DNA from: Sedimentisphaerales bacterium
Lineage (GTDB): Bacteria; Planctomycetota; Phycisphaerae; Sedimentisphaerales; SM23-30
DNA: 64,000 nt
Direction: 5' to 3' (one strand)
NCBI GenBank assembly: GCA_963666285.1
Contig: OY762711.1
In this document: positions 15,290-44,393 of the stretch, piece by piece
How positions within the stretch are numbered: the first letter of the stretch is position 1
Layout of the letters: each line of letters begins with the position of its first letter
Made by a program: the position numbers and the translations under genes
The notes under the pieces: model-generated
Database searches by the model: none
What the model was told of the DNA's origin: nothing
What the model saw: the letters and a program-made list of their open reading frames with translations, nothing else

Positions 15290-15437
15290 TTTGGAGCAAT
15301 TAATAATGCATCTTAAAAATTATGATATAAGCATATATCCTCTCATCAAGAATTTCGCCATTTTTTTCAATAAAAATACTAGATTTTCCCTCAAAACTGC
15401 GCACACAGGCATTTTTTAGGGAATATTTTAAATAGAG

Positions 15438-15470
15438 AAAGCCTCATAAGTTATTTACTTACAAGGCTTT
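15438..15470 (-). terminator. Terminator hairpin downstream of tRNA-Lys fragment
   Basis: Minus-strand AAAGCCUUGUAAGU-AAAUA-ACUUAUGAGGCUUU, fully paired with two G-U pairs; identical copy at 44168-44200. Confidence 0.6.
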
Positions 15471-15476
15471 ATTAAG

Positions 15477-15521
15477 TACGCCATTTAGGACTCGAACCTA
15501 AAACCCACGGATTAAGAGTCC
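15477..15521 (-). pseudogene. 3' half of tRNA-Lys(CTT) (att core)
   Basis: Minus strand GGA-CTCTTAA-TCCGT...TTAGG-TTCGAGT-CCTAA-ATGGCGT-A gives the anticodon loop, T-arm and 3' acceptor strand; no D-arm or 5' acceptor strand. Confidence 0.85.
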
Positions 15522-15529
15522 CAAGCTCG

Positions 15530-16976
15530 GGTAGTGTCAAGAATCTTTCGCACATTTATTAGAGTATCCTTCATCCGGTCTTTTCCCGGTTCTGGATGCC
15601 CCCCTAGGGGGGCGGCGAGTTATCGGTCGCTAGCCAGTTTTTTTATTCATTTTTTGCTCCTTCTCAAGATCGTATAAATGCTCCATATTCAGATATCTTT
15701 TAGTACTCCATTTTGTTCCTGCTATATGTCTTAGCCGGGCAGTGGCTAACATCAAAGCACTATGACCGTCTGGAAAACTACCAACAACTCGGGTACGTCG
15801 CCGAATCTCTTTCATTATACGTTCCAGACCATTATTGGTTCTCAGTCTGCTCCAATGCTCATCAGGGAAGTTATAATAGCTCATAGTCTCCATGTAACCT
15901 TCTTCTACAACTTTGGCAGCTTCTTTCAATTTCATAGAGAGAAGTTTTTCAATTACCTGCCTGGCTTTTTCCTCTGCTGCTTTCTTGTCTTCCTGAGCAT
16001 GGATAGCTTTAAGCATAGCCGCTACCTCACGAACCTTCTGACGTGGAACTTTGCTAAAAACATTACGATACCAATGTACTGTACATCTTTGCCATAGCGA
16101 GTCTGGGTAGTATTGCTCAAGAGACTCTACCAGCCCCATGCACTTATCTGTAACAAACAACCTTACATCTTTAAGCCCTCTGGATTTCAAATGCCTGAGA
16201 AATTGCCCCCATCCTTCCTTGTCTTCTTTGGGACCTTCCCAGCTGCCTAATACCTCTCGGTAACCGTCCTGATCGACTGCTATTGCGACCAGGACTGAAA
16301 CATTGCGAACCTCTCCAGCCCAGCTTCTTTTTAGAACTATCCCATCCAGGTAAACATAAGGGTAATTGCCTTTAAGCTCTCGATTACGCCATTGTTCTAT
16401 CTGACTGTAAACCTTCTTGTTGAGATTGCTGATTGTGCCGGGACTTACCTTTGTTCCCCATAACGTCTGAGTGATATCTTCAACCCTGCGAACAGAAACG
16501 CCTGCAAGATACATTTCTATTAGAGATTCCTCTACGGATGATTCACGACGCTTATAACGCTCAATTATGGCTGTCTCGAATGTGGTCTTACGCAACTTGG
16601 GCATCTTCAAATTGACTTCACCGGCTTGAGTTTGCAACTTACGATCATAGAAACCTGCTCTGGTATCTTTACGAGCTTCGCTACGCTCATATCGTGCAGC
16701 ATTACAAAGCTGGTCAGCCTCGGCATCAAGCATGGTATTCAACGTATCCTCAACGGTGGTACGTACTAGATCTCCAAGCTCATGCTTTACCCGTGCCTCA
16801 TCAATTTTTATGACATTATTCAAGTTCTTGTCATTTCCGGTCGATTGCTCTAACTGTTTCATTTGAAGTCCTTTCTTCTGGTTAATAATAATTTGTTCGT
16901 TACATTACTATCGACCGGATGAAGGACTTCTTTTATCACGTCCAATAAAATTGTGCGAAAAATATTATACGTTATC
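15530..16976 (-). mobile_element. IS256-family insertion sequence
   Basis: Imperfect terminal inverted repeats GGTAGTGTCAAGAATCTTTCGCACA and GATAACGTATAATATTTTTCGCACA (reverse complement); 8-bp target duplication CAAGCTCG at 15522-15529 and 16977-16984. Confidence 0.92.
15630..16862 (-). CDS. IS256-family (Mutator-type) transposase
   Basis: EMYLAGVSVRRV, YVYLDG, FVTDK, WQRCTVH and RTNNGLER motifs. Confidence 0.95.
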   Translation of the reverse strand: MKQLEQSTGNDKNLNNVIKIDEARVKHELGDLVRTTVEDTLNTMLDAEADQLCNAARYERSEARKDTRAGFYDRKLQTQAGEVNLKMPKLRKTTFETAIIERYKRRESSVEESLIEMYLAGVSVRRVEDITQTLWGTKVSPGTISNLNKKVYSQIEQWRNRELKGNYPYVYLDGIVLKRSWAGEVRNVSVLVAIAVDQDGYREVLGSWEGPKEDKEGWGQFLRHLKSRGLKDVRLFVTDKCMGLVESLEQYYPDSLWQRCTVHWYRNVFSKVPRQKVREVAAMLKAIHAQEDKKAAEEKARQVIEKLLSMKLKEAAKVVEEGYMETMSYYNFPDEHWSRLRTNNGLERIMKEIRRRTRVVGSFPDGHSALMLATARLRHIAGTKWSTKRYLNMEHLYDLEKEQKMNKKTG

Positions 16977-17118
16977 CAAGCTCGCTCTATATCCCCTATA
17001 TTTACAGGCACTTACAAGCCTATTTTGGTGTAAAAATGGCACTTACAGCACAATAACAATACAACACTAACTACAATAACACGGGGTTGACAGTTGCGAT
17101 TGACACCATTTTGACACC
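16977..17118. repeat. att-like junction copy 1: right arm
   Basis: 142 bp, end-to-end homologue of the equal-length 44252-44393, ending in an identical GGTTGACAGTTGCGATTGACACCATTTTGACACC. Confidence 0.85.
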
Positions 17119-17192: not shown

Positions 17193-18338
17193 CTATTGAG
17201 ATAGCGTTTCATTTCTTTCTAAATGTCTTAATGTTGAGTTTATTTTTGATTGTAACACTTTTTTTGGGGGAAAACGCTTCTTAAGCATTTCTATAACGCC
17301 AATGTCACCTTTATTTGCTACGCTAGTTTTAACGGCTTTTAATGCCCATTTAATTTCATAATCTTTATTCGATTCTTTAAGTACAGCATGAACTTCCGGC
17401 TTGATATCTTTATATGAATAATAATGAAGACAATAGATACCTTTCTGCCTTAGGGCTAAATTAGACGAATCTTTGATGATGTTTTTTATGATCTTTAAGT
17501 CACCTTTTTGAGGGTAAGTAACCAGATTCAATAATGCACCGATCCGCAAACCATCTTTTTCCTTTGTATCATTAATTACACCATACAAAAACTTTCTGGC
17601 TTTACTATTCTTTTGAGTCCCGAGTATATAAAATGCTTTCTTAGAAATATTCTCATCATCACCCTTCCAGCCTTTATAGCTGCCAATCAATAAAGAACTC
17701 ACATCCGTTCTCTTACCAAGAATACAACCGCTCATAACAGCGTCTTTTAATATTTCATCCGCTTCTTGAGCGTTCATGGTTTCATACATCAGCCCAACAT
17801 ATTTATCACCTTTTTGACTTGCCAGGACATGGTAGCCCAGGGCTTTGACCTTATCAACATCACAGTTCATCGCAATTTTATACCAGAATTGGTCAGAACC
17901 AAATATTTTTTGTTTCATCAACTTATCATACATATCGTCAGGTACATCTGCTGGCAATTCCTCTTGAAACTTCCACAACCTTTCAATCATAAAGACCTGA
18001 ACAATAAATTTCTTTTCCGGGCTGTCCTTTAGAGAAAACGGCGGCTGCCAAATATAATGCCCTGCCCGATCCTGCTGACATTCAGTATTATCCAGCACAG
18101 AAAAAGCCTTAGGGTAATCACTACGCGCTTTTAAGATATACGCTTGCAGCAAAACATCCCAGCTATCTGTCCCAATAGAATTAAGATCATTATTATATTC
18201 AAACTTTCCTTCAGCCAACAAAGCAGAATATAAATCCCCTTTTGTTTTAGCTAACAATTCTATCTGCCCATGATTAGTAGCGAAACAAAAACAACAACAA
18301 ATCAAATTAGCAATAATTATATTTAATATATTCTTCAT
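17193..18338 (-). CDS. Exported helical (HEAT-like repeat) hypothetical protein
   Basis: Signal-peptide-like N-terminus; C-terminal repeats such as KKAFYILG, LRIGALLNL, LRQKGIYCL and IKWALKAV. Confidence 0.6.
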   Translation of the reverse strand: MKNILNIIIANLICCCFCFATNHGQIELLAKTKGDLYSALLAEGKFEYNNDLNSIGTDSWDVLLQAYILKARSDYPKAFSVLDNTECQQDRAGHYIWQPPFSLKDSPEKKFIVQVFMIERLWKFQEELPADVPDDMYDKLMKQKIFGSDQFWYKIAMNCDVDKVKALGYHVLASQKGDKYVGLMYETMNAQEADEILKDAVMSGCILGKRTDVSSLLIGSYKGWKGDDENISKKAFYILGTQKNSKARKFLYGVINDTKEKDGLRIGALLNLVTYPQKGDLKIIKNIIKDSSNLALRQKGIYCLHYYSYKDIKPEVHAVLKESNKDYEIKWALKAVKTSVANKGDIGVIEMLKKRFPPKKVLQSKINSTLRHLERNETLSQ

Positions 18339-18364
18339 TTTTCACCTTTTCAATTATAAAACGT

Positions 18365-21300
18365 TTAGTTTTGTATTTCCGACCACCAGTTTATATTTGT
18401 TGGTATCACTCTTTTGGTATTACCGCCACAATGCACTTCACCGCTTTTTTTATGATAATACCAGTCATCAATAGCTACAACATCAATTGTACCTGGCAAA
18501 TCAGCTTCAAATGTTTCCAGAATTATATCACGTTGCGTTTCAAGAAGCCCGTTACCATTTAAGTCTTCTCCTTGATCAAGAATAAAGTTGCAATTGACAT
18601 CTTCATCAACACTACCAGTAAAATAACAAAAGAATGGATCCGGAGCTATATACGTGTCAATACTTATACCTTTAAAGACCATTCCATTAACTAGACCCGG
18701 AGTAGCCGCAAGTGCTCCTCCTCTATAAAACTCAAAAAGTACCGGTGCAAATATAATATCATTTTCAATGTCAAGGTTGAATATCTCAGCAACTGCGTTA
18801 TATAAGCCATTTTCGCCGGTCAGATATGAAGAACTTATCTGTTCGTTATAAACTTTAAGAGTAACACCATTAGTTGATTTATTAAGAAAACTGCTTACAC
18901 AAGATTCATAATCTTGTATACCATCTCCATCTACATCTTCTACTAGGCTAATTAATTTAGGTACATCTTGCCCATTAATATCATCATGTAAAATATCCAA
19001 TGCCAATTCAGGACTCGCCATCAAAACCTTCCATCCATGGGTTCCGCTTAGGTCAGGGATAATAGTCATAAACTCATCTACATGCCCAACAGAAAGCCAA
19101 TCAGTATCAAACTCAACAGGGCTTTGTATACCTTGCCTGGTCAGAAATGATTTGAGGTTGTCATATATTAAACTACCATAATATATCCTTCCATAAGGAT
19201 AACTGATACCAGAAACGGTACAAGGCGGACTTACTTCAAGATTTCCAAAGGAATTGTATGTACTATGATGGGAATATCCCTCCTCTATTTGTATTTGAAT
19301 ATGACCTTTGTCAACACCTAGAAAACCACTAGGATAATTTGTCACAGGGAAATTTTTCAAATCTCTATCTCGAACAGAATCCAGAATTACGTGCATTGAA
19401 TGATAAGGGGCTTTTTGATAGCATATTTGAAATTGATCTTGAGCCCACCTGTCTGTACTCTCGATAATGTTATCAATTACACTTTCCGGTGTTGCATCAG
19501 GAAATTCAATTAAACAATATTGACCTGATTCAGCACTACTATTCATTGAGACATAACTCTCAGCTACTTCATCCAAATGATGCAATAGTATCAGTGGCGC
19601 AACTTTAATTTTAATTTCATCATAATGAATAACTCTTTCCTCTGAATCAGAAATCGGGTCAACAAGTTCTGCTATCATTGTCAGTTCCCCGGCAAAATGA
19701 GGACCAAGTCCTTCGACTGCCAATTCTTTATCTTGACCATTAATATCATTTAATGAAATACAAGAACTTCCAACGCCACCAATTTCAAATTCAGAATCAT
19801 CAAATCCAGTATTCGTACTTGCATCAAGGCCTAAAATTGCTTCAGCATCAATGCTCCTCTCTGAAAACACTCTAACAATATCACTTGCCTGAGTCCCCTC
19901 TTTAACATTTTCTGGATTAGACAAACGTAATCTTATATGCCAGTCATCTGGTACTGAGTATGACACAAGCGGTATCTTTCTAAGTATTACTTTAGCCATA
20001 TCACTTAAATCGTCTTCCCCATCTATATTTGCATCGAGGCAGTCTTTTCCCAGTGGAATAGTATTAGAGTCAATCACATCTTCTCCTGGTGCTAAGTAAT
20101 CATCATTATCTACATTACATAGAGTGATTATACCCCATTGATTATTTTCTGCCGCTATATTATCATCCTCATCATTATCATTAACATTTCCATCGTGATT
20201 TCCGTCGCCGTCAATATCCACCTTGAGAATGCATAATTCATAATTCAAAAAAGATTCCCAGCCGGTTGCTCCATCGCCGTCAGGATCAATTTCTACTGTT
20301 ATTAGGTCATAATCCGGCACGGTACTTTGCTTAACAGCTTCAACATAAAAAGTCAAACAATTCCCTCCATTGTCAACATTCATATCTGAAACGCTATAAC
20401 CGACATTGGACTTAATATAATCGCCGCCAATATCAGCAGGTGCAATTTTTCGACTTATATCTCCATTTACATTCCACAATCGCATTTTCCCATCTGGCAG
20501 TGTATATATATATTCGTTTCCTGCCAACTTAACCAACTGATCTGGATCTGATTCAGAATAAATAAACTTAATATAAGCAACATCCATATCTATATCATCA
20601 GGTAAATATGCCTGAACTCTTAAAAACTGACCTCCAGCTCCTATTCCATAATTTCTATACTTATCTATACCATCGGCATAATTAGGAATAAGATCTTTAT
20701 CTTCATCAGTATTGTTAACACCAAGGTATTGTACTTGCCATTCATAGGCTCCCATATCAATTGAACCATGTGCTACCCTAGCATTTCCTGCTAAATCTTT
20801 TGGAATACTGGTATAGCTGGAGCCCTGGTTAACACATGGTGAATTACTCATAAGCTCATAATTCGAGTTAACAGAAGAAACAAAAAGTGGATCTTGGTCA
20901 ATATTTCCTCCTCCATCAGTACCATATATAGAATTCCAGCTCCCACCACTCCCGTTACAATTATGAACATTACTGTTTTCAATTAATACATTATTCGAGA
21001 ATGGACGAATTTCAATTGAAGACGAATCTATATAATTCCAAATTATACAATTCCTAATTAGTACGTCTGCTTCATTTCCATAAAAGCAAATATTTGGATA
21101 CCTCTGCGAAATATTATCCACAAATGTGCAGTTATTGATTTCAATATCGTAATTAGAAACTAATGCACTATTGTAATATGCGATATTATTTGTAAATAAG
21201 CAGTTGTTTATAATAACTTTCTCATCTCCTATAGTGCCAGTATTATAAAATTCAACTGCACCAGAATACTTCGCAGCATTATTGTTAAAAATACAGTTTG

Positions 21301-21903
21301 AAATCAAAGGAGATACACCATCCAGACAACTTATTGCCCCCCCACAGTATAAGTTGATATATCCATTATGTTACTTTCAAAGATACAATTCAATATCGAA
21401 GGACTACCTGCTGCACAATAAATTGCGCCTCCAAGCCGTGCCCCATTTGAGTCTGGAGCATATCCTCTGGTAATTGTCAAACCGTTTAATATGGAATTAT
21501 TTTCTTCATTATTTGCAAAAATGAAACCACGAGCAGGACTTTGTGCAGTACCATTACAATCAATTACTGTACTGGAAATAACATATTTATCATTTGGAGC
21601 AATACTGCGAACCGTAATCGCTTTTCCATTATAATTCAAATCCACGTTACCTGCACCCGTATATGTCCCGGGATATATAATTACTTCATCGCCATCAACA
21701 GCGGCGTCTATTGCTGACTGGATAGTAACTTTGGGACCATGAATTCCATTCCACTCCGAAGCCTGACCATCCCACACATCATTACCATTACCTGATACAT
21801 AGTTAACATCTCCATAGGTAATATTAATTACCATAAAAAGTAAACTTGCACAAATCCTTCTCATACTCATAGATTTATTCTCCATACAGTTACAAAATAA
21901 CAA
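18365..21903 (-). pseudogene. Secreted beta-helix (choice-of-anchor Q-like) + protein-arginine deiminase fusion, split by one frameshift near 21340
   Basis: ORF 21331-21903 has a signal peptide, TIQSAIDAA..GD and GGAIYC. The second frame continues GGAISCLDGVSPLISNCIF into ORF 18365-21307, which has SPCVNQG/IDMGAYE and PAD motifs DRWAQDQ, WLSVGHVDEF, GEVHCG. Confidence 0.8.
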
Positions 21904-22234
21904 AACATAGAAATCAGTAGAGCTTCAATTAATTTGCTAATATATCGCAACTCATAATTTGCAATCATTAATTCTATGAATTATTTTTTTGAGGTTACCA
22001 TAAATTCAACCACAAATTGTATTTTACAACTTAATGCTAGCAAGGCAAATAGTTTTTTATATAATCTTACTAATAAACCTACATGAAAGGAATGTTCTAA
22101 TAATGAAATACGGATAAATAATCCGTTGCTCCGTTTGATAGTGCCGCCCTACGCTCAATCATCGCTATTTCTCGCCAAATAATCCGTATGCTTTTTGGCA
22201 AAAAAGAGCAAATTTGGAGAGTGTAAAATACAAG

Positions 22235-22523
22235 TGACACTAAAATGACTCCATTGGTGTCTTTTTGCGATTTTCACATGCCAAGAAATTGATGCAAGTT
22301 ATTTATCCACAATCTGTTATATCATCGCCGAAAAGTACGTTTTTTAGGCCTACCTAGTCTTAAGAGTACGATATAAGGGATTTTAGACAAAATATAAGTC
22401 ACTAGAGAACAAGGACTTATATAGATAATTATTTATTCTCCAAATACTTACATCAGAAAAATAGTAGTTTAGTAGTAGATAAGTAGTAGACTGCAAATGC
22501 ATACTGCGCACGCAAGTGCGCAC
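22235..22523. repeat. Cluster of short direct-repeat pairs around a degenerate tRNA-Lys core-like sequence
   Basis: TGACACT/TGACTCC (22235, 22246), AGTAGTAGA x2 (22471, 22482), TGCGCAC x2 (22505, 22517), and AAGTACG..TTTAGG..ACCTA..TTAAGAGT (22333-22367). Confidence 0.5.
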
Positions 22524-22686: not shown

Positions 22687-23298
22687 ATGAATATAAGCCA
22701 AGAAAAAATTATTCAAGCCAAGAATGTTTTCAAAAGAAATGGTGGCATCCTACGTACCACTGAAGCCCTCAACCAAGGCGTCCACCCAAGAACTCTATAT
22801 TATATGAGAGATAACGGCATACTGGAAGCCTTATGCAGGGGTACATACCGCCTAGCCGAATTGCCCCCACTTGACCAACATGATGTTATAACAGTTGCAT
22901 CAAAAGTAAAATCTGGTGTAATATGCCTCATATCTGCTCTATCATTCCATGAGATAACAACCCAGATTCCACATGAAGTATACACCGCAATAAGTCGCAA
23001 CACAGCATATCCAAAACTTAGCTATCCTCCATCACTATTTTTCAGGTTTTCTGACGACTCTTTTAATGCAGGAATAGAAATTCACAAGATCAGTGGCATC
23101 GAAGTAAAGATTTACTCAGCAGAAAAAACCATTGCGGACTGCTTTAAATATCGAAACAAAATAGGCCTTGATGTCGCTATTGAAGCTATGAAATTCTGGA
23201 GAAAGAAAAAAGATATCAGAATTGACAAGCTGATAGAATACGCCAAAATATGCAGAGTATATAATGTTATCAAGCCGTACGCTGAGGCAATGCTATGA
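22687..23298 (+). CDS. abiEi: Type IV toxin-antitoxin AbiEi-family antitoxin/regulator
   Basis: N-terminal wHTH (GILRT..AL..G.HPRTL...RG.YRL); ICLISALSFHEITTQIP; EKTIADCFKYRNKIGLDVAIEA. Confidence 0.85.
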   Translation: MNISQEKIIQAKNVFKRNGGILRTTEALNQGVHPRTLYYMRDNGILEALCRGTYRLAELPPLDQHDVITVASKVKSGVICLISALSFHEITTQIPHEVYTAISRNTAYPKLSYPPSLFFRFSDDSFNAGIEIHKISGIEVKIYSAEKTIADCFKYRNKIGLDVAIEAMKFWRKKKDIRIDKLIEYAKICRVYNVIKPYAEAML

Positions 23299-24232: not shown

Positions 24233-24892
24233 CTAGATACCTAATTCGCTAAAATCAAGTTTCCTAAGTTTGAATTTAGAATCTACCATTTTCGATCTTT
24301 TCGGACCAACAGGTTCACTTTTTAGCTGTTCCTCAATCTCTATATATTTTTCTCTGACCAGTGTTACTTTCTTACTATAATATTTATTTCTAACCCATTC
24401 TAATTCTTCTGGTGTACATAAGTCCAAAGCGACCTGCGGCAACTCATCCAGATACAAATATTCAATGTAATCAGAACCATTTTCAACATCAGGTCGTTCC
24501 TGTTCGACGCCCAGAATATGAGGAATAAAGAATAGATTTGCTAACATAGCCTCAACAAGTTTGTCAGATGCTCTTTGCTCATTACCTACCCGATATAAAA
24601 CAAGCATCCATACTAAATAATGAGCAGCATCTCCAATATCATCAGGAAACTTTTCTCCATACCACTGATAGTATTCCAATGCTCCATCCAAATCATCAAT
24701 AAGCAGGTAAAGCAGACCTAGCAAATAACGTTTACCTGCCCCATCGCTTATCCAGCCATGTTCTTCTTGTTCTTTTTTGAAAGATCTTTTATATCTGCTA
24801 ATTCTCTGTTTTAACTTTTTAGGATCAGTGGGTATATCATACATAATGGTATTCCTTCGCTTGCTTTTTCGCCTTATTTCAATATAATTCAC
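24233..24892 (-). CDS. Hypothetical helical protein
   Basis: 219-aa ORF with TPR-like helices (DGAGKRYLLGLLYLL..DLDGALEYY.W....FPDD); start may be the downstream MYDIP. Confidence 0.6.
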   Translation of the reverse strand: MNYIEIRRKSKRRNTIMYDIPTDPKKLKQRISRYKRSFKKEQEEHGWISDGAGKRYLLGLLYLLIDDLDGALEYYQWYGEKFPDDIGDAAHYLVWMLVLYRVGNEQRASDKLVEAMLANLFFIPHILGVEQERPDVENGSDYIEYLYLDELPQVALDLCTPEELEWVRNKYYSKKVTLVREKYIEIEEQLKSEPVGPKRSKMVDSKFKLRKLDFSELGI

Positions 24893-24927
24893 CGATTAAT
24901 TTATACATTAATCCTGGAGAAAGCAAC

Positions 24928-34113: not shown

Positions 34114-34135
34114 AACTAAATTTAATTATACTAAA

Positions 34136-36445
34136 TTAGAAACCATTTGCCAACCAGTTACTCGCCATAGCAGCAAAGTCAACCAGATCAACCACACAAT
34201 ATGAGGCTGATGTGTTATCAAAATTATATTCATTGCCAACAAATTCATGGTTACTACAAGGTGTAACACCTAACTCGTTTAGCATAGCATATTCATCAGC
34301 AATATCATCGCCAGATATTTCATAATTATAAATCCGAACTTCATCTATTGCACCAACCATAAATCCGCCAAGCATATGACGATTAGGCTGACCGTTACGA
34401 TAAGCACCGATCAGGTTACTTAATTCCCAAGGTACAAAGTTATTAGGATATGACTGAGAGTTCTGCGCAACCAGTTCACCGTTAATATAAACTTTAACTG
34501 TATTATTTGACCAGGTAGCGCTAAACATATGCCAATATCCATCATAAAATGAATAACCATCCATATATGAGTAACTGCCTTTTGCCTCACCTAGATATTC
34601 CCAGGAATCATCACGAACGATAATTCTTGCGGTATCATCATCGCTTAAATCCATAGCAAAATGATTTCCACCGGAATTATTACCATTTGCAATCACAACA
34701 GAACCATAGTCTAATTTAGCCCAGCAAAGAATAGAACCTTCATCCAGACCACGTCCTAAACCTACCCTGTCAAAATTCTCATCATCACGAATATCACCTA
34801 ATGTATCAAGAGGACCGGCTTTAGGATAACCTTCTGAATCCAGATCAATATATTCATCACCGTCAAGATACAAAGCACTACCTTTAATACCTTCCACTAT
34901 TGTTGGTTCAACTGTTATAGCAACATAAATGTTCGGATCATTTGCAGGAACAGTTTTAACTTCAGCCGCATCTCTTAATGTCCCAACTTCAGATGCAAAT
35001 TCACCGGTATCTTTCATCGGATCCTCTGAATTATCAAATGTATATTCTGACAATAACTTCTTAATTCTAACTAAACGTGTAGCTGTCTGTACATCATCAC
35101 TCGTTACAGTTGTACTAGCTACTGTATTCAATATACAATAATATTTGCCTTCATCATCCAAAGTTGGATTAGCAATAGATAAAGTAGCTGTTCCATCGCC
35201 AACAGTATCAGTAAATGCCACACTTATATCGCCACCAACTTCCAGCTTAACATCATCTTTATACCAGTCAGCTGCAACTACCGGATTCTTCGTTGTGTTA
35301 AATGAAACTGTAAATTCGACAACAGCGTCTGTTTCAAATGCACGCGCATCTACAGGCTGCTCAGTTATTACTGCAATCGAAGGTAGCGTTTCAAAAGACC
35401 ATGTCTCACCAACCAGACAATAATTTGGATCAACATCATCCAAAGTATTTGCCATAGAGAAGTTGTGAGAATGCCCATCAAGAGCATCTACTACTGTCCA
35501 GTAATAAACCGTATCATAATCCAGAGAAACGGTAAATTCAGATTCAACTAATTCTGTACCAGGATCACCAAGCTGACCGAAAAAGTATTGATTATCTGTA
35601 TCTGTACCAATAAATACAAACTCTTCAACTATATCAGAGTCGATATCGTAAATAGCCTCTGTATCAATCGCTGGTTTCCATTTCAAAGTCACATCTACAA
35701 CATTACTGTTTGCAACCTGGCTTACTGATTCATCATAAGGAATATACAATAAATCACCCATATGAATATTGTCAATATACAGATTTTCCGGTGGTGCATA
35801 ATTGCCAATACCTAGCAAAGCGACAAGATCACCTACAGACCCTGAACTTGCATTACGAAATGAAGAACCATAAGCAATCAAAGAGGCGTTCTTAAATATA
35901 GGCTCATCTTTTGCCATATATGCATCATAAGTATCATTTTCCTGGTCTATTATCGCCCAGACATGATACCAGGTCTCAAGATCAATAACAGTTGTATAAG
36001 AGGCTGAACCATTACGAACATAAATATTTGCCTGCCCATCTCCAGATCCGGTACTATCTCCAAAACCAAACTGTACTTCAAAATCACCATAACCATAGGA
36101 TGTCGAGGAATCTCCATCCCTATCTGAAAGGCCAAAGCTGTTATTAACATCCTCACTTACCATATAGACGCTAAAGAACAATACCGTACCCGTTGTATTA
36201 TCAGCTACAGTATCAATATTATTGTTAAATACACCTCGCGCACCGCTATCAAAACCAAAAATTAATACCTGGTTACCTGTACCGTCATCAACAATCTTAG
36301 TTGTACCGGTATTTGTAACTGCTGTCCATGGCGGAGAAGCTACTAATCTAGTTAAGCCAGTATTATAAGATTCAAAGTCATCCACAAGCTTTGCCTGACA
36401 CGCAACAGATAAAACCATCAATAAAGAAATTACAATTTTTTTCAT
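34136..36445 (-). CDS. Secreted Ig + LamG protein with N-terminal lectin-like domain and dockerin-like C-terminus
   Basis: Signal peptide; DDFESY N-domain; WYKD...EGKYYC; GAIDEVRIYN; CVVDLVDFAAMASNWL. Confidence 0.78.
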   Translation of the reverse strand: MKKIVISLLMVLSVACQAKLVDDFESYNTGLTRLVASPPWTAVTNTGTTKIVDDGTGNQVLIFGFDSGARGVFNNNIDTVADNTTGTVLFFSVYMVSEDVNNSFGLSDRDGDSSTSYGYGDFEVQFGFGDSTGSGDGQANIYVRNGSASYTTVIDLETWYHVWAIIDQENDTYDAYMAKDEPIFKNASLIAYGSSFRNASSGSVGDLVALLGIGNYAPPENLYIDNIHMGDLLYIPYDESVSQVANSNVVDVTLKWKPAIDTEAIYDIDSDIVEEFVFIGTDTDNQYFFGQLGDPGTELVESEFTVSLDYDTVYYWTVVDALDGHSHNFSMANTLDDVDPNYCLVGETWSFETLPSIAVITEQPVDARAFETDAVVEFTVSFNTTKNPVVAADWYKDDVKLEVGGDISVAFTDTVGDGTATLSIANPTLDDEGKYYCILNTVASTTVTSDDVQTATRLVRIKKLLSEYTFDNSEDPMKDTGEFASEVGTLRDAAEVKTVPANDPNIYVAITVEPTIVEGIKGSALYLDGDEYIDLDSEGYPKAGPLDTLGDIRDDENFDRVGLGRGLDEGSILCWAKLDYGSVVIANGNNSGGNHFAMDLSDDDTARIIVRDDSWEYLGEAKGSYSYMDGYSFYDGYWHMFSATWSNNTVKVYINGELVAQNSQSYPNNFVPWELSNLIGAYRNGQPNRHMLGGFMVGAIDEVRIYNYEISGDDIADEYAMLNELGVTPCSNHEFVGNEYNFDNTSASYCVVDLVDFAAMASNWLANGF

Positions 36446-36523
36446 TTTAGATCCTCCAAAAAAAAGTGTTAATAAAGTTTTCCAAAACCAATGCTTATGC
36501 TACATCGCATTAACAAATTACGT

Positions 36524-39316
36524 TTAATTATTACTATCAACAAGCCAGTCACCGGCAAAAATATCCAGATCTAGCATATCTACAATTCCATCTGAATCAA
36601 AATCTGCCGAAGGGACAAAAGCAGCTTCTTCCAGCCACTGCTCAGAAAGATAGCTAAAGTCGTCCAGATCAACAATACAATCCATATTCAAATCCGCCAT
36701 ATATTCCCCAGGCGCACACCCGATAATTGAGACATTATCAAAAACCGCACCATTAATTTTAACGGTGCTATGAGAACATACCGCTAGTCCGACATTAAGA
36801 TAGTCACCACTAATACCAGGCATACTACTGCCCATTAAAATCCAGGTATTGCCATCATAAGAGAAATAACAGTAAAACCTATTACCTAACCTTCTTATTT
36901 TCAGCCAGATATTATCAGTATCCGTATCAATTGTACTTAAAGATTGAGCTGTCTCACCACTACCACTTCGAACCACATACTGCAACGCCCCATCACCACA
37001 ATAAGACAACATTACCATTGCTGCATCATTTGTAAGCCCGTCACGAAACATAATGGCAGCTTTATCGTCAGAACTGGTATAATCATTTGATACAAATCTC
37101 GCTGAAATCTGACCATCGCCGTACAATTCTCTATATACATAGTGAAAACTATCTTCATCATCCCAGACATCACTGCCAGAACCATTTATCGAAAATGTTC
37201 CTTCATTATATCTGGCATTGCCGGCAAAACTTACATCTCCAATATCTGTGCTTTTCCACGGCCTGGGCAACTCACCATTTGATATCTGAAAGCACATAAT
37301 ACCGTCAAACCTGGCTGTCACACTCTCTGTAAACAGGCCAATTTGTGATTCAGGAAATTCTATTTCATAAGACATGACTTCCTGACCATCAATGAAGAAA
37401 TAGAACCTATCGTATAATTTTACAACACGTAGATTGTAGCTATTGGCACTACTAATTGGAACGAACTGACTAGCTAAAGCCTGACCGTTGAGCATCCCGG
37501 AAACCACAAATTGATTTTCAGCCAGGTCGAAACCGGCTTTAATATAATTATCCTGATCTATTACTGCAGCATAGATACCTGCAATCCCGTCTTCCTGCCA
37601 ACTGGTATAAACCTGGGTAGAAAATTCATATTGATGCATTAGATTACCCTTAAATATTCTACTATATTTGCTAAGGGTAAATAAGCCATCGCCTCCAACT
37701 GCCCACAATCCTTGACGACTGATATCCAGGCCATCGCCCCAACCTCTTATACCTTCATCAAATTCATCCCAGCCGATAGTGTAAATAACACCATCATAGT
37801 AAGCGGCTGCATGGTCTGCATATAAGCCGGGAATACCATCTCCAGCAAAATCAGTTTCGATATTAGCAAAATCCGGCGGCAACACATCATCAATCAATAC
37901 GCGAAACGCATTCCCATTTTTTTCAACGCGAATCTTATGATAAACTGAATAATCAAAATCTCCGTCAAATGAGCCGGCGCAAACAATCTGATCCGTTAAG
38001 TCAGTCTTTATCCGGCAATACCAGTTATCTAAATTATTGTCAGAACTGCGGTCCATACCTATTAACATCCAGTTATTTGCATCTTTGTAATATGCTACAA
38101 CTCCGGCCTTATCTTCTACATCTCTGTCCTGATCAAATTTCATATTAGCTTCAAATAAATAATTTGTTGCAGGTTCGCGATTAGCCAGGTTAAAACTGAA
38201 GCATTCCTGACTGCTCTGATACGCCTGATATTCTTCAACCTGCCAGTTCCCTTCATTCAATCCGGGAGACAACTCCAGCCAGTCAGACTCAGGTAATGGA
38301 CCATCTGGCAGATAAAATAAACTTCTTAACTGCGGCTCTACCGGCCCGGGGTGATAGCCAGGGAAAAGACTGATAGTAGGACCATCTACATAGAGATGCG
38401 TATCAAAGAAGTGTACCCGGTCTATACGCTGTGTCCTGCCGTTGCCTGTAACTCTTGGTTCTTTGGCAAAATAGCCTATCCATTTTTCAAAGCCATTTAA
38501 TCCTTCTATCAGCCATGGTTGGCCAATTGTTTTGATTCTATATTCGGTACCTTCATGCGTATAATACTTCATTGTGAGAACAGGGTCAGGATATTTACCG
38601 GAATTTGAGAACCCATTCGGAGAATCAGCCTCTACGCAGCCGATTGCATATTCTGCCGCTCGGGTATGATTGCCGTTATACAGCATATAATATCTATCAC
38701 GATATCTGAACACAAACGAACCTTCATTAATTTTCTCATCAACCAGCTCCCAATCATATATTGGCCAGATCTGAACATCCGGACTGCTGGTAAGGGTATA
38801 ATAATCACTCATTGTACGATAATCATTATGATTATTACTGACACCACCAAACCTGGTACTATAATAATGTAAAGAGCCGTCCAGATCCTTGAATGTTTTG
38901 ACATCAATACAACTGGTTTCAAAAGGTGCATCTACAGGTTCTGTATATGGCCCCGTAACACTATCACTTATAGCATGAACAATTTTTTGGTCCATATGGG
39001 CGTATAAATGGAATACACCATTGTCATAAGCAATATGCGTGCCATGAATATCTTTGTCACGATCATCATACCTTTGCTCATACCAGGTATTATCCCAGGA
39101 AAAGATATGCATACGCTCTCCCCATTCAGTAAGGTTACGAGATTGATACATATCGCCACTCAGCCAGTTTCCGGTAATATAATATTCACCATTATACTTA
39201 ATAACATCACAATCATTAATTGATGTATCATAACTGAATGGATTATCTACCGCTTTACCGCTTGAATTTATAAACAATAAAACAGTAGCCAGTATAAAAA
39301 TATATTTAGCTTTCAT
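36524..39316 (-). CDS. Secreted GH43-like glycoside hydrolase with accessory domains and C-terminal dockerin-like domain
   Basis: INDCDVIKYNGEYYI, CIDVKTF and INEGSFV propeller motifs; DLNMDCIVDLDD and DFDSDGIVDMLD. Confidence 0.75.
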   Translation of the reverse strand: MKAKYIFILATVLLFINSSGKAVDNPFSYDTSINDCDVIKYNGEYYITGNWLSGDMYQSRNLTEWGERMHIFSWDNTWYEQRYDDRDKDIHGTHIAYDNGVFHLYAHMDQKIVHAISDSVTGPYTEPVDAPFETSCIDVKTFKDLDGSLHYYSTRFGGVSNNHNDYRTMSDYYTLTSSPDVQIWPIYDWELVDEKINEGSFVFRYRDRYYMLYNGNHTRAAEYAIGCVEADSPNGFSNSGKYPDPVLTMKYYTHEGTEYRIKTIGQPWLIEGLNGFEKWIGYFAKEPRVTGNGRTQRIDRVHFFDTHLYVDGPTISLFPGYHPGPVEPQLRSLFYLPDGPLPESDWLELSPGLNEGNWQVEEYQAYQSSQECFSFNLANREPATNYLFEANMKFDQDRDVEDKAGVVAYYKDANNWMLIGMDRSSDNNLDNWYCRIKTDLTDQIVCAGSFDGDFDYSVYHKIRVEKNGNAFRVLIDDVLPPDFANIETDFAGDGIPGLYADHAAAYYDGVIYTIGWDEFDEGIRGWGDGLDISRQGLWAVGGDGLFTLSKYSRIFKGNLMHQYEFSTQVYTSWQEDGIAGIYAAVIDQDNYIKAGFDLAENQFVVSGMLNGQALASQFVPISSANSYNLRVVKLYDRFYFFIDGQEVMSYEIEFPESQIGLFTESVTARFDGIMCFQISNGELPRPWKSTDIGDVSFAGNARYNEGTFSINGSGSDVWDDEDSFHYVYRELYGDGQISARFVSNDYTSSDDKAAIMFRDGLTNDAAMVMLSYCGDGALQYVVRSGSGETAQSLSTIDTDTDNIWLKIRRLGNRFYCYFSYDGNTWILMGSSMPGISGDYLNVGLAVCSHSTVKINGAVFDNVSIIGCAPGEYMADLNMDCIVDLDDFSYLSEQWLEEAAFVPSADFDSDGIVDMLDLDIFAGDWLVDSNN

Positions 39317-39338
39317 TTACTCTTTCCATCTCTCTAAA

Positions 39339-40481
39339 CTATTTTTCAACTATTATACTTTTAATTAAATCTACTTCATCCTGATCATAAGCTGTACCGT
39401 CCGGTCTTATTATATCATGGAACCATATTTCCGGCTCAGCAGTATATTCTTTCTGCCATGATTCCCATGGATACTGCGTCTGAATTTTGCCTGCTACAAA
39501 GCCCCAATTATAAGATCCTATCTTATTAGCCTTAAAGTAAGGTAAATGCTCCTGAAAAGTACTGTCTGCTGTTCTTGCCATGAACTCCGTACATAGTAAC
39601 GGACGACCAAAAGGCTTTATCGAACCAACCCGTTCTTTCATCCGATCAATACTATGATATCCATGAAAGGTAATAACGTCAGAATTTGCCAGCATAAACC
39701 TGTTTATCTCCGTTGCTTTTGGACCTACCCATTCGTTCACCCAGACTCCTGCTGTTAATGGCTGGGATGGGTTTATCTCCCGAGCCCAGATAAACATCTT
39801 TCTAAGCATAATAAGACCTATGTCTTCTTTTTCCTTTAACGAAATCCCATCTTCGCCATTACGGTTACCAGGTTCATTATATAAATCCCAGATTAACACT
39901 CGCGGGTCGTCCTTGAATCTGCCAATAATTCCTTTATAATAACCTTCAAGAGTGTTTTGCTTTTTGATATCAGTTAAAATATCAATATGAGGAGACTGTA
40001 CCCAGCCGGAATTATGAACATGTGGCTTAGGGTCCGGTTGTATACCTAATTGAGGTCGAGGGTTCCATACACTGTCGCAAAGAACAAACATTATTCGTAT
40101 TTTATATTTGTTAGCAACAGCAAGAAATTGATCTATACGTTTTATCAAACCTTCACTGTCCTGCTGCCAGAGCAGATCATGCAGAAAAACGCGATGGGTA
40201 TTCATGCCCATCTCGGCTGACCAACCAAGTTCTCTTGAAATAGTCTCCAGGTCAAATGTCTCAGGCTGCCACATTTCCAATTGGTTGATCGCCGAAGATG
40301 GTGTAAAGTTAGTCCCAACAAGCCAGGGCTGATTAGCATACCATTTTTCTGCTTTTCCTACGGTCCATTGTCCTGGAATCGTAATTTCAGAATTTCCGGC
40401 AATAACAGAATCATTCAATAATGTCATTACTAAAGTAATAAAAACAAACCTGACTAATAAATTCATGCAATAATCCTTCAC
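39339..40481 (-). CDS. GH5-like (clan A) glycoside hydrolase
   Basis: NQLEMWQ, GMNTHRVFLH, WDLYNEP (acid/base), FHGY, CTEFMAR (nucleophile), NWGFV. Confidence 0.85.
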   Translation of the reverse strand: MKDYCMNLLVRFVFITLVMTLLNDSVIAGNSEITIPGQWTVGKAEKWYANQPWLVGTNFTPSSAINQLEMWQPETFDLETISRELGWSAEMGMNTHRVFLHDLLWQQDSEGLIKRIDQFLAVANKYKIRIMFVLCDSVWNPRPQLGIQPDPKPHVHNSGWVQSPHIDILTDIKKQNTLEGYYKGIIGRFKDDPRVLIWDLYNEPGNRNGEDGISLKEKEDIGLIMLRKMFIWAREINPSQPLTAGVWVNEWVGPKATEINRFMLANSDVITFHGYHSIDRMKERVGSIKPFGRPLLCTEFMARTADSTFQEHLPYFKANKIGSYNWGFVAGKIQTQYPWESWQKEYTAEPEIWFHDIIRPDGTAYDQDEVDLIKSIIVEK

Positions 40482-40507
40482 AAAATGATAAATATATAGA
40501 GAGTCTA

Positions 40508-40546
40508 TTCAGATGCCGCCAGAATCTAATCTGACAGCATCTGGAA
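40508..40546 (-). terminator. Intergenic hairpin
   Basis: Minus-strand CAGAUGCUGUCAGA-UUAGAU-UCUGGCGGCAUCUG stem-loop after the PEP-CTERM-like gene. Confidence 0.55.
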
Positions 40547-40584
40547 AGAAAAGGTTTTTAATTTAACATATTCCCCAGTATTAA

Positions 40585-41373
40585 CTACTTTATGCGGCGG
40601 ATTCTGCCGACAAAAGCTGTCCCAAAGACTGCAAGAACCAAAGCTCCAGGTGCCGGAACTGTACAAACATATTCACCAAGGCTTACATTGTCAATCCAAA
40701 CATCCTGTTGATCCTGGGCTTTATATCCTAACCCAAGCAATGCTACAAGATCTCCAACTTCTCCTGCTGAGGAATTACGAAAAGCTGCATCATCTGCGAT
40801 GAGAGTTGCTGATGATAATTCATCACCTGTGCTTAAATATGCATCATAGGTGTCATTTTCCTGATCAATAACAGCCCAAATGTTGTACCATGTCTTAATA
40901 TCAATCTCAGTTCCTATTCCGGCACTACCATTTCGAACATAAAGGTTAACCTTGCCATCACCATTAGTTCCGCCATCTATAAGTCCAAACTGTACCTCAT
41001 AGTCATTAAAACCAAATATTGTACTTGAATCACCATTTCTATCAGTAAGGCCAAAGCTATGGTTTATTCTTTCAGCATTAATATAAAGACTGAATGAAAG
41101 TAAATTATTTGTTGTATTATTGGCCACCGGATCAAATTTATTGCAAAAGACCCCTCGTAAGCCTTCACTCCACCCATATGCCAAAACTTGATTACCGGTC
41201 CCATCATCAAAAATATCTGCCTGCCCGGTATTAGTGATCGCAGTCCAAACCGAACCAGCAACATTCCTTACATTTGTTTGCGAACTAATATCATAGCTTT
41301 CAAAATCATCATTAAAACCTGCTCTACATAGTGCTGCACATACAATCAAAACAACCAATACTGCCTTGTTCAT
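40585..41373 (-). CDS. PEP-CTERM-like (VPAPG) anchored protein
   Basis: Signal peptide; C-terminal VPAPGALVLAVFGTAFVGRIRRIK; body is paralogous to the N-domain of 34136-36445. Confidence 0.82.
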   Translation of the reverse strand: MNKAVLVVLIVCAALCRAGFNDDFESYDISSQTNVRNVAGSVWTAITNTGQADIFDDGTGNQVLAYGWSEGLRGVFCNKFDPVANNTTNNLLSFSLYINAERINHSFGLTDRNGDSSTIFGFNDYEVQFGLIDGGTNGDGKVNLYVRNGSAGIGTEIDIKTWYNIWAVIDQENDTYDAYLSTGDELSSATLIADDAAFRNSSAGEVGDLVALLGLGYKAQDQQDVWIDNVSLGEYVCTVPAPGALVLAVFGTAFVGRIRRIK

Positions 41374-41409
41374 TTCTCCAATCCTCCAAAATAAACTAGA
41401 ATTTAAGAC

Positions 41410-43104
41410 TTATTCAAAAATCAATACAGGTTCTGCCCATAAAAACCAGTCAGAATAAATATTTGTCGGCTTTACATTCCTGCCACGTTTTTTATCATAG
41501 ATCTCTGCATTTATAGGCGAGCCTTCTGTAACTGCTATTGTTAAGAATTTAGCGTTTTCAGGTAATTCAACATTAACATTCTCTATCTGGCCGCCCTCTA
41601 CATTTTGTTTTCCATATACCAACTGGTTATCAACAAATATCCAGATATCCACTCCAGCAAGATCCAGGCCATTTGCGCTTTCACTTATACCACCTTTTGC
41701 ACAAAATCGTCTAATTTCTACGCCCGGTAAATCGTTACGAATAGCTTCCAGGTCATATGTAACTCCAAGGTTTGCATGCATGAATATAGAATGATTTCGA
41801 TTTGTTCCATACTCAATGTTCTCAAGAACAAAAGACCGAGCAAATTCGCTTAATGTCCCATATAAAAGATCACATGAATATAACCCGGATGTATCTGGAA
41901 ATTCTCTGAATATATAACCGTTAGAATTGATTTGACTTGACCCGTCTGGAACAAATACACCATCAACATACCTGATGGCCTGAGAAATATGATATTTTGA
42001 ATCACCTTGTCGAGCCTTAAACCTGAGTTCTTCATGCTTTAAGGATTTTAACATTCCTGTACTCGCTTCAATAACACAGTTTAGCTGTCCAGTCCCAAAG
42101 CCATTGCCACCACCAACAATATCAGAAAGATCCATTTTCTTTTGACCTCGCCATATTACGCCGGCATCTGAATCAATTTCACGTACAAAATATTCTTCTG
42201 CTAAAGGTATTGCCTGAATTTCATTATTATTGGCGTTAAACCTCCTGGCATGATTCTCTTTTAGATTTCGGCATATACTATCTGAATCTGGAAAACTGGA
42301 GTAATATTGAACTTCGCCCTTAATTACATGCAGCTCGGATGATTCATTTGATCCGACAAACACTCCAAATTCCGTCCCTAAATCGATAAACCTGGCATTT
42401 GGTGTATCGACCGCAAAGCCATGCCCTGATGACGGTACACTTGAGTATAATCTGCCGGAAATAAAATCAATACCTTTCTTTTCAATAGCAAACTCTGCCG
42501 GCCCTTCTATAATAACCTCAACCTTATTATCATATAATATCTTTACTATGCCCTTATCAATCTTATATGGAGGCTGGTTAATCTTGATCCTCTCATTGAT
42601 TTCAATCCCATCTGAATTACTATCCCATACAACATTAACTTGATCAACCAGCGTTGCTACTGGTACTGAATATTGAGGAGGGTATATATTCGCATAAATA
42701 ATAAAGAAGACCAATACTACAGCCGCTAAAGAAACAATACCATTGAATAAAGTAAAAAACTTGCTGGACTTAGAAGGTGATTTAGTGACTTCATTTTCGA
42801 TACTGATCTGCTGAATATTGCCTGCTTCATCTTCTACAGCAGGAGCCTGTGTTTCATTTGCCAGCATCTCTCTTATAAACACCTGCGTGTCACAGTCTTC
42901 AGCATTTTCTTCAAGACTGGAAATACCTTGCATGGTGTTCATATTTATATGAGACCATAATACGTCTAGATAATAATCAACAGCTTCAGGGTGTCTTTTT
43001 AATATCTCCTCGAGTTTAGTAAATTCCTCTTCTGAAATTGTTCCATTAAGTGAACTAACAGTCAAGTATGATATTTCATATATTAGTTTTTCATCCTGAC
43101 TCAT
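41410..43104 (-). CDS. FecR-like anti-sigma factor with C-terminal NPCBM-like domain
   Basis: Transmembrane helix; GFAVDTPNARFIDLGTEFGV; IFMHAN.GVTYDL..IR; DWFLWAEPVL. Confidence 0.85.
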   Translation of the reverse strand: MSQDEKLIYEISYLTVSSLNGTISEEEFTKLEEILKRHPEAVDYYLDVLWSHINMNTMQGISSLEENAEDCDTQVFIREMLANETQAPAVEDEAGNIQQISIENEVTKSPSKSSKFFTLFNGIVSLAAVVLVFFIIYANIYPPQYSVPVATLVDQVNVVWDSNSDGIEINERIKINQPPYKIDKGIVKILYDNKVEVIIEGPAEFAIEKKGIDFISGRLYSSVPSSGHGFAVDTPNARFIDLGTEFGVFVGSNESSELHVIKGEVQYYSSFPDSDSICRNLKENHARRFNANNNEIQAIPLAEEYFVREIDSDAGVIWRGQKKMDLSDIVGGGNGFGTGQLNCVIEASTGMLKSLKHEELRFKARQGDSKYHISQAIRYVDGVFVPDGSSQINSNGYIFREFPDTSGLYSCDLLYGTLSEFARSFVLENIEYGTNRNHSIFMHANLGVTYDLEAIRNDLPGVEIRRFCAKGGISESANGLDLAGVDIWIFVDNQLVYGKQNVEGGQIENVNVELPENAKFLTIAVTEGSPINAEIYDKKRGRNVKPTNIYSDWFLWAEPVLIFE

Positions 43105-43676
43105 TTCAAACCCTCACACCGTAAATTTCTACGAAAACAAATTGCCAGTTTTGCGTGAATATTAGAAATAATCCTGTGAATTGAAGGAGGTTTTTTACTG
43201 ATTCTTAAAGATATCTGCTTCAAGGTTAATTCATCTTTATATCTCAATTTAAGCAAAGATTTTTCTTTATTGGCTAACTTTTTTACACATTTATTGAGAA
43301 TATCAATATGATCATCAAGGTTTCCAATTCTGGACTTTACTCTTGCTGCAATTGTCTCACATATCTCTGAATCAAATTGCATCTTGCTGTTTTTGGAAGC
43401 CCGATAAAAATGGAAAACTTTATACTTGGCTATCGTTATTGCCCAGGCAGCAAAATCAGTACCAGGTACAAAAGTTTCATATTTATTCCACATCTCCGAT
43501 GCCGTTTCCTGATATATATCTTCAGCATCATTAATATTTGGAACCAGACTAATGATAAAGGCTTGAATGTGTCTTTGATTAGCCATCAGCAGCTTGATAA
43601 AATCATTTTTATCAAAACCGGAATTGTTATTTGAATTTACATTACTCATAAAATACTCACTAAGAACATATATCAA
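43101..43676 (-). CDS. ECF sigma-70 factor (Planctomycete type)
   Basis: AEDIYQET..EMWNKY..FVPGTDFAAWAITIA; LNKCVKKL...LLKLRY; start may be ATG 43649. Confidence 0.9.
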   Translation of the reverse strand: MIYVLSEYFMSNVNSNNNSGFDKNDFIKLLMANQRHIQAFIISLVPNINDAEDIYQETASEMWNKYETFVPGTDFAAWAITIAKYKVFHFYRASKNSKMQFDSEICETIAARVKSRIGNLDDHIDILNKCVKKLANKEKSLLKLRYKDELTLKQISLRISKKPPSIHRIISNIHAKLAICFRRNLRCEGLK

Positions 43677-44127
43677 TCACATTAAGGATCAAAAAATTAG
43701 CATAAAAATATAAAACCATCATTCCATACAACATAAATATAATAATTATAATGATTTATATACATGACAATATTGTATGTTTTTTAAATTTAGATTTATC
43801 TGCCCCAAATCACTTTAGCCTATATCAGTCATCGAAAATATTAGCATGAACAATTTACTAATTTGTAAAAAATATACCTTCAACAAAAATATGAGGTGCT
43901 AAACAGATAACAGACACTTGTTGAGAGGTCTATATTCTAATATAAACAAGGAGAAGTTATCATTGGAAAATGTGTAAAATGCCATATAAGATAGATAGGA
44001 CAATATCTGAGAATATCCCCCACTCATCCTTGTCCAAAATCAGACAAACCTCCTCATCCACCCTGTCCAATTCGTGCCCAATTCCCCACTCAAATTTCCC
44101 CTCTCCCAAGTCAAAACTGCGTACACT

Positions 44128-44393
44128 TGCGCACACAGCCATTTTTTAGGGAATATTTAAAATAGAGAAAGCCTCATAAGTTATTTACTTACAAGGCTTT
44201 ATTAAGTACGCCATTTAGGACTCGAACCTAAAACCCACGGATTAAGAGTCCTAGCCCCGCCTCATAAAGCCTTTATTTACAGCACCTTATAAGCCATTTT
44301 TTGCGTAAAAATGGCGATTACAGGACAACAACAAGACAACACTAACCTCAATAACACGAGGTTGACAGTTGCGATTGACACCATTTTGACACC
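44128..44393. repeat. att-like junction copy 2 (uninterrupted)
   Basis: Left arm, hairpin and tRNA core (44128-44251) contiguous with the right arm (44252-44393). Confidence 0.92.
44207..44251 (-). pseudogene. 3' half of tRNA-Lys(CTT) (att core)
   Basis: Identical to 15477-15521; lacks the 5' half. Confidence 0.85.

Follow-up and report, generated by a model that had tools for sequence, protein, structure and literature searches.

The locus described here raises the question of how large carbohydrate gene clusters that carry no integrase of their own come to lie between copies of a broken tRNA gene. It belongs to a Sedimentisphaerales bacterium (GCA_963666285.1, contig OY762711.1), and the window that we analysed is a stretch of 64,000 nucleotides, C1:3328001-3392000 of a 6.35-Mb assembly (G000), in which all of the junctions to be discussed read on the minus strand. 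A preliminary description, made from the letters of the window alone, had drawn attention to a non-coding unit of ~266 bp that occurs twice, and had read the DNA enclosed by the two copies as one cassette of an integron-like array. We consider it probable that the locus is instead a stack of elements at tRNA-Lys(CTT), in which an integrase-bearing island (island A) comes first and units without an integrase, likely to be decayed earlier islands, come after it, and that the integrase of island A, IntA, could carry such units along in cis. Starting from the tRNA, the order is tRNA, island A, junction J2, unit B1 (21.9 kb), junction J1.5, unit B2 (5.4 kb), a copy of the insertion sequence IS256, junction J1 and cluster C. 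The junctions are made up as follows.

15398..15521, minus strand: core half of J1, with the tRNA-Lys(CTT) 3' part at 15476-15521 and a terminator-like hairpin at about 15438-15470
15530..16976, minus strand: IS256, 1,447 bp, transposase at 15630-16862, between the arm and the core of J1
16985..17118, minus strand: P arm of J1, IntA type, with GGTGTCA-N4-GGTGTCA at 17101-17118
22234..22523, minus strand: J1.5, a decayed third junction, with a GTGCGCA tandem at 22505-22523 and a degenerate tRNA-Lys core at about 22333-22370; on its other side, a decayed terminator and IntA-type P' repeats at 22235-22252 (GGAGTCA-N4-AGTGTCA)
44108..44393, minus strand: J2, an intact hybrid junction, with an IntA-type P arm at 44252-44393 and the tRNA-Lys core at 44206-44251; on its far side, a terminator-like hairpin at 44168-44200 and an arm, X, with GTGCGCA/GTACGCA repeats at 44118-44134

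The core-side parts of J1 and J2, each consisting of X, the terminator and the tRNA core, lie at 15398-15521 and 44128-44251, a spacing of 28,730 bp, and differ at 2 of 124 positions. The far arms, at 16995-17118 and 44270-44393, carry TGACACC repeats with a period of 11 and differ at 17 of 124; their spacing is 27,275 bp, because IS256 parts the arm of J1 from its core. This IS256, flanked by an 8-bp target duplication (15522-15529 and 16977-16984), is identical to two copies elsewhere in C1, and when it is left out the two junctions are collinear over 266 nt, with 10 of the 18 spacer nucleotides and 29 of the 266 positions in total differing. The repeat unit of the preliminary description stands as a duplication of the core side, 28,730 bp apart, and of the far arm, and does not stand as a contiguous unit in its left copy. 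Its account of the core is borne out: the core is the 3' part of tRNA-Lys(CTT) from the anticodon arm, starting at tRNA position 29 and identical in J1 and J2 over 46 nt, and it is accompanied by the hairpin (two found, against 0.3 in shuffled sequence). For a pattern of 18 nt taken from the core, the window gives 2 matches where 0.01 would be expected. The view that these are arm-core-arm junctions from tandem integration at tRNA-Lys(CTT) also holds. Further junctions had been predicted to the left; core pattern, mismatch scan, core profile and arm profiles found none left of J1.

The intact tRNA and neighbouring integrase predicted at higher coordinates do exist. ARAGORN places an intact tRNA-Lys(CTT) at C1:3438096-3438169, behind the S20 gene and 66 kb beyond J2, and the tRNA fragment in J2 has the same orientation and 1 difference from it in 46 nt. 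Adjoining this tRNA, and convergent with it, is IntA (C1:3436756-3438021), a PF00589 tyrosine integrase of 421 aa that carries R, H-x-x-R, H and Y motifs, the pattern taken as the catalytic motif set of tyrosine integrases. As an integron integrase it falls far short, scoring 43.6 bits with TIGR02249 against a cut-off of 265. Relatives of IntA (E<=1e-30) are found in 25 of 61 genomes, G000 included, with a tRNA in 23 of the 29 loci that were fetched. The low-GC DNA between IntA and J2 (0.348, against 0.412) is island A, of which the window holds one part.

44394..64000, no strand: distal part of island A, which is 65,890 bp in all and continues past the window to IntA and tRNA-Lys(CTT)

With an intact tRNA, a collinear 3' fragment and an internal tyrosine integrase, island A is an ordinary tRNA-integrated element whose crossover lies in the anticodon arm. 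Its contents include ParB, ArdC, type I restriction, a vWA-phosphatase-kinase trio and a HerA-like ATPase, the HerA/VirB4-like match being far below cut-off. Near J2 it holds a tyrosine-recombinase stub (44804-44935) and a degenerate arm copy (44967-45090); the stub was considered as a remnant of IntA and rejected, its best match being a Xer-like protein of the same genome (39% over 57 aa). A 1,281-aa protein at 45830-49675 has no Pfam, NCBIfam or PADLOC match and a full-length match to phrog_18693 (E 8e-131), a family of unknown function, and is possibly defence cargo. Outside the window, C1:3392784-3406906 encodes a 2,759-aa FG-GAP protein, PPDK-like halves, a HAD hydrolase, a radical SAM protein, a NUDIX protein and a class II tRNA-synthetase-like protein. 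Contigs C2-C4 of the assembly are three related replicons of 65-67 kb, each with a tyrosine recombinase; a 100-bp repeat and some modules are common to them and several islands of the chromosome, one of which is island A, of similar length (65.9 kb); they were also considered as circles of the tRNA-Lys array and set aside, no tRNA-fragment match being found on them.

The arms of the junctions are what distinguish the elements of the stack. Exact GGTGTCA-N4-GGTGTCA occurs three times in the 6.35 Mb, in the left arm of the attachment site attL at the tRNA, 115 nt after the core start, and in J2 and J1, 143 nt before the core. Because the repeat is equally placed in the IntA relatives (60-62% identity) of genomes G031 and G047, it is very likely the arm site of IntA. 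The far sides of J1 and J2 lack this repeat, and the same offset holds X, with TGTGCGCA/TGTACGCA; in the X of J1 a single GTGCGCA repeat is left. X aligns nearly gap-free with the left arms of integrase-bearing attL sites (z 6.2 and 3.3-3.6) but fails to align with the tRNA-Lys flanks of the same-genus genomes G001 and G003, which have no island there (z 0.3 and -0.3), so that X is to be seen as the left arm of another element; the possibility that X is native chromosome, and J1 and J2 plain attR copies, was rejected on this comparison. The GTGCGCA tandems are predicted to be the arms of a second integrase clade, clade B: in genome G291 a tRNA-Phe, a terminator and a GTGCGCA tandem are followed by a convergent integrase that shares 27% identity with IntA. 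In a tree, 13 integrases fall into clade A (the IntA type) and clade B, two long-branch rows being unsurely placed. The clade B integrase is present in 102 of 401 genomes of the order and was not found in G000. As the two arms of J1 and of J2 belong to different motif types, these are hybrid internal sites, and neither is attP-like if that term means the site of a single integrase.

The presence of J1.5 inside the block between J1 and J2 divides what had been read as a single 28.7-kb cassette into two units, B1 of 21.9 kb and B2 of 5.4 kb without IS256. The core-to-arm part of J1.5 aligns with attL at a score of 106, against 57±6 for random windows, 1 of 20,000 of which reached it, and a left-arm profile built from relatives alone finds the junction at E=0.029. 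Clade-A and clade-B motifs paired 230-300 nt apart occur once per order in C1, A-B at J2 and B-A at J1.5. Island A and B2 accordingly have GGTGTCA arms at both ends and B1 has GTGCGCA-type repeats at both ends; for cluster C no right-hand junction was found. Judged by the ends expected of cis-mobilizable elements (CIMEs), J2 is intact, J1 is split by IS256, and J1.5 is supported on its P' side and, by repeat motif only, on its P side. B1 and B2 stand in tandem with the integrase-bearing island A, collinear behind tRNA-Lys(CTT), and, as the preliminary description had held, the enclosed DNA has no tyrosine or serine integrase: there is no PF00589 or PF00239 match from J1 to J2, tblastn with 20 recombinase queries gave none at E<=0.1, and the open reading frames (ORFs) scanned there include no transfer gene family.

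How the array was built can be pictured in a few steps. Elements of two integrase clades would have integrated in turn at the anticodon loop, each pushing earlier ones off the tRNA, and the alternation of arm types along the array is what stacking of two clades would lead one to expect. B1 and B2 would have lost their integrases by deletion right behind the left arm. In relatives, C-terminal integrase stubs do lie behind left arms (in G373, 59 aa, 76%; in G017, 41 aa, 51%; and in G031 and G050), which argues that integrase-less units at least often arise by deletion. Because J1 bears an IntA-type P arm, IntA could use J1 as well as J2, and by recombining attL with J1 it could have brought in A, B1 and B2 (~95 kb) as one composite, which would have landed in a strain that had X and cluster C behind its tRNA. 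Such an arrival would account for fresh, identical cores at J1 and J2 although the inner J1.5 has decayed; as a part of the stacking explanation we give it somewhat less than an even chance. IS256 would then have inserted beside the J1 core, parting arm from core. With the arm now 1.45 kb away from the core, the glycan block would be locked in place, and IS256 probably now blocks IntA-driven movement at J1. An active array, as first proposed, is not supported: J1 is split, J1.5 is decayed, and the integrase of the second arm type has no close relative in the genome.

Several observations weigh against this history. Plain in-place stacking alone leaves the fresh J1 outside the decayed J1.5 unexplained, and the composite arrival that would explain it is a co-transfer inferred from one genome, no conspecific genome having been found in the collections searched. 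The contigs, which cannot resolve the shared core of 92 nt, held no excision product, circle, empty site or IS-free J1. Among the ORFs of island A that were scanned there is no relaxase family, though no search was aimed at relaxases. Similarity did not assign X to clade B in a comparison of 46 rows, with a mean z of 1.3 over the 25 rows of clade B, of 1.9 over the 7 of clade A and of 0.66 over 14 others, and no integrase stub lies behind X or J1.5 in G000. The P arm of J1.5 was missed by the relatives-only clade-B profile that found K1 and M, two of the other copies of X described below; the matching ends of B1 rest on a near-palindromic motif of 7 nt that is also present twice in another context; and the loosened clade-A motif was picked after J1.5 had been seen and, with two mismatches allowed, has 33 matches in C1.

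Integrons are built from IntI, attI, attC and Pc, and the array resembles them in having one recombinase followed by a polar row of recombinase-less units. It differs in having no IntI-type integrase, in sites that are tRNA-derived, arm-core-arm and furnished with direct arm repeats, in units of 5-22 kb with regulators of their own, and in the terminator after each intact core. The boldest of the alternatives, that of the preliminary description, takes the likeness literally: B1 and B2 would be complete integrase-less cassettes, each circling out and re-inserting by means of an integrase acting in trans, so that whole glycan modules are swapped. Both units do have matching arm motifs at their two ends, a stretch of 108 kb between matching TGCAACA arms in genome G050 has no PF00589 match, C1 has five copies of X, each backed by other genes (four copies heading glycan or sulfatase clusters, two starting with ECF-FecR), and recombination at a chimeric internal site has been reported for one streptococcal integrative and mobilizable element (IME; PMC5704250). 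We think this quite improbable all the same, since both units would have to use J1.5, a decayed site, and J1 is broken up by IS256; no integrase of clade B was found in G000 and IntA is not of the integron type; relatives show integrase stubs behind such arms; one copy of X, K2, has no P arm; and the three copies displaced from tRNA-Lys are diverged (78-86% identical). ECF-FecR pairs, moreover, are not enriched behind intact tRNAs, and a tRNA-Lys core lies in the 700 bp upstream of only 2 of the 37.

The main rival to stacking followed by IntA-driven arrival would have the last step take place without an integrase, DNA of a sister strain, or a flank picked up through imprecise excision, having recombined at the shared 124-bp stretch of core, terminator and X and so doubled it, or gene conversion having renewed J1 from J2. 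It draws on the agreement of J1 and J2 at 122 of 124 core-side positions, against differences at 17 of 124 in the P arms and 10 of 18 in the spacers, on the IS481-like element that sits where the glycan cluster gives way to island-type cargo, and on published accounts of RecA-made hybrids of tandem integrative and conjugative elements (ICEs; PMC5812530) and of flanking-DNA capture at tRNA islands (bioRxiv 2020.12.28.424599). The near-identity, however, ends exactly at the 5' edge of the core; this edge is the anticodon stem, the place at which crossover by a tyrosine integrase would be expected. Site-specific stacking also gives the simpler account of the alternating arm types, so that we hold this explanation to be unlikely. 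That the duplicate junction is an artefact of assembly, which would have undone the preliminary description, is very improbable indeed. The three sequencing runs that hold array DNA all come from one study, probably including the source sample, and no RNA run with array DNA is listed; in run X3 the DNA is in fragmented pieces identical or nearly so to G000. The J1 region has a depth of 20-27 in short-read contigs from the probable source sample, which match the assembly over 11001-31000, and separate contigs, at depth 16-27, hold the J1 flank, the join of IS256 and arm, and the different spacer of J2; the two copies, besides, differ at 29 of 266 positions. These contigs argue against an artefact and, being of the same probable source, give no independent support. 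Beyond the stack itself, one might imagine that in this order the two clades, though their arm codes differ, share tRNA cores, that hybrid junctions stay recombinogenic, and that passing integrase-bearing elements collect, shift and re-dock integrase-less ECF-FecR glycan modules of 20-30 kb. We regard this as unlikely too; if true, it would mean a standing cassette system behind the glycan-cluster repertoire of this genome, with X as a reusable cassette head.

The cargo of the integrase-less units, and the cluster that follows J1, can be set out as follows.

5235..15289, minus strand: cluster C, following J1, with a sigma factor of the extracytoplasmic function (ECF) type (14756-15289), FecR (13112-14749), LamG proteins and a sulfatase
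17193..21903, minus strand: cargo of unit B2, proteins of 190 aa and 381 aa without family match and a 980-aa protein with a protein-arginine deiminase (PAD) domain; no integrase
22687..24185, plus strand: AbiEi-AbiEii toxin-antitoxin pair, right end of unit B1
24233..25947, no strand: 219-aa ORF and IS481/IS3-like transposase, at the break between island-type cargo and glycan cluster
25962..43676, minus strand: B1 glycan cluster, with an ECF sigma factor (43101-43676), FecR, a GH5-like protein, two GH43, GH2, a LamG/Ig protein and a GH92-N fragment

In B1 the predicted sugar-degrading genes cover ~18 kb; as a block of DNA this cluster was not found in 60 relatives, 11 of which have single-gene matches at 64-75%. 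The first genes after J1 and after J2 are, as had been noted at the outset, an ECF sigma-FecR pair in each case; the two sigma factors are only 34% identical, and the ECF sigma factors in the window exceed the score required for the Rhodopirellula/Verrucomicrobium family. G000 has 37 such pairs among 4,676 ORFs. Enrichment behind intact tRNAs was not found, 4 of the 37 lying within 20 kb (8.6% of all genes do) and 7 of the 37 within 50 kb (18% of all genes). An 82-bp piece of the interval between J2 and its ECF gene recurs (80%) at C1:1404651-1404731, upstream of another ECF-FecR pair. In the 980-aa protein of B2 (18365-21307) the PAD domain lies behind a choice-of-anchor Q domain.

Apart from J1 and J2, X is found in C1 in three older core-terminator-X copies that are 78-86% identical, K1 (C1:3539012, behind tRNA-Ser), K2 (3526216) and M (2383839), of which K1 and M have clade-B-like P arms. 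Two of the five copies of X head ECF-FecR pairs, as compared with 34 of 1,756 genes that have a 200-bp upstream gap, a proportion above chance among copies that are related to one another. Located behind tRNA-Ser(TGA) and upstream of tRNA-Lys, K1 and K2 (C1:3526062-3539700) stand at either end of a 12.8-kb GntR/LacI-GH92-SSF cluster; K1 is preceded by a fragment with homology to the 219-aa ORF of B1 (24233-24892), and the region is probably a displaced piece of the tRNA-Lys array. At C1:4927744-4927990 there is an isolated decayed junction, which has a clade-A-like P arm and, after it, the degenerate 3' half of a tRNA with a terminator. X itself has no match in the metagenome and genome contig collections; a looser pattern of terminator and GTGCGCA finds 1 and 2 loci in them, none conspecific and none with an integrase match. 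The same-genus genomes G001 and G003 have no island at tRNA-Lys, and the gene order there is not kept.

Arrays of this kind are not confined to G000, and integrase-less units are common in the order. Matches to the tRNA-Asp 3' half and terminator number 15 in G047 and 10 in G050, and hybrid junctions at tRNA-Asp are many in both, mostly without an integrase; 21 junction sites from G047, G050 and G031 have several arm types in mixed pairs. The arrays are dense on contigs C4 and C5 of G047 and C21 and C11 of G050, with at least four arm types, and many of the G047 junctions keep the core only up to the T arm, as if they had ended at secondary sites. Four sites on contig C21 of G050 are accompanied by one 85-aa integrase stub. 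TGCAACA arms are found without an integrase in G047 and G050 and with clade-B integrases in other genomes. In G017 (C28:95600-134000), behind tRNA-Arg(TCT), three ECF-FecR clusters are parted by terminator remnants, one of which has an X-like tail, and one of these clusters matches C1:3063417-3076310 of G000 at 53-76%. Elsewhere in G000, C1:2104079-2184242 holds a tandem of two integrase-bearing elements of ~40 kb at tRNA-Arg(ACG), and C1:207327-235700 is a second integrase-less array: five degenerate tRNA-Met 3' halves lie near tRNA-Met (210750), four of them collinear downstream, with a common downstream stretch, different upstream arms and no PF00589 match nearby, and enclose two copies of IS256 and ORFs that read as helicase-like, AbiE-like and methylase-like.

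The suggestion that the locus represents an undescribed system cannot be upheld, as integrase-less members of tandem tRNA islands are known as CIMEs, as additive flexible islands and as tycheposon remnants. The closest likeness is to CIMEs and their accretion in streptococci (PMC5704250), where ICEs and IMEs decay to CIMEs, newcomers accrete, and composites are excised through chimeric sites; there, too, att-ended integrase-less units are stacked behind an integrase-bearing element at a tRNA (a tRNA-Lys in one example), internal att sites are chimeras from very different integrases, and the outer integrase could excise the composite. The present array belongs to another bacterial group and has no recognised relaxase in island A, an ECF-FecR glycan cargo of 18 kb and a junction split by IS256. 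The additive flexible genomic islands of Alteromonas (PMC4898812) are described as cassette hot spots at tRNAs in which turnover is seen by strain comparison, whereas here a single genome has arms that can be read as two types. In the tycheposon islands of Prochlorococcus (bioRxiv 10.1101/2020.12.28.424599) elements lie side by side, parted by partial tRNAs, newer elements displace older ones, broken integrases lie further in together with partial tRNAs, and the cargo serves nutrient use; integrase clades and host differ here, and the crossover falls within the anticodon arm. A further report (bioRxiv 10.64898/2026.01.13.699239) also deals with the tandem occupancy of one spot. Island A fits the Islander definition (PMC4383910) in its tRNA, 3' fragment, PF00589 integrase and anticodon-centred site; Islander counts 125 tandems and calls one only where each member has its own integrase, so that B1 and B2 would be filtered out.

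The process, then, is already known, and what is unusual here is the readable two-clade arm pattern together with the large glycan cargo; a broad search, which does not prove absence, found no published account of such arrays in Sedimentisphaerales or Phycisphaerae. The locus offers a readable case of a glycan degrader that has perhaps gained whole regulated carbohydrate clusters on decayed islands, as their cargo, at a tRNA hot spot. By its arm repeats each end can be assigned to an integrase clade, so that the order and history of such arrays could be read across many relatives, and these repeats make cis-mobilization testable in this group of bacteria.

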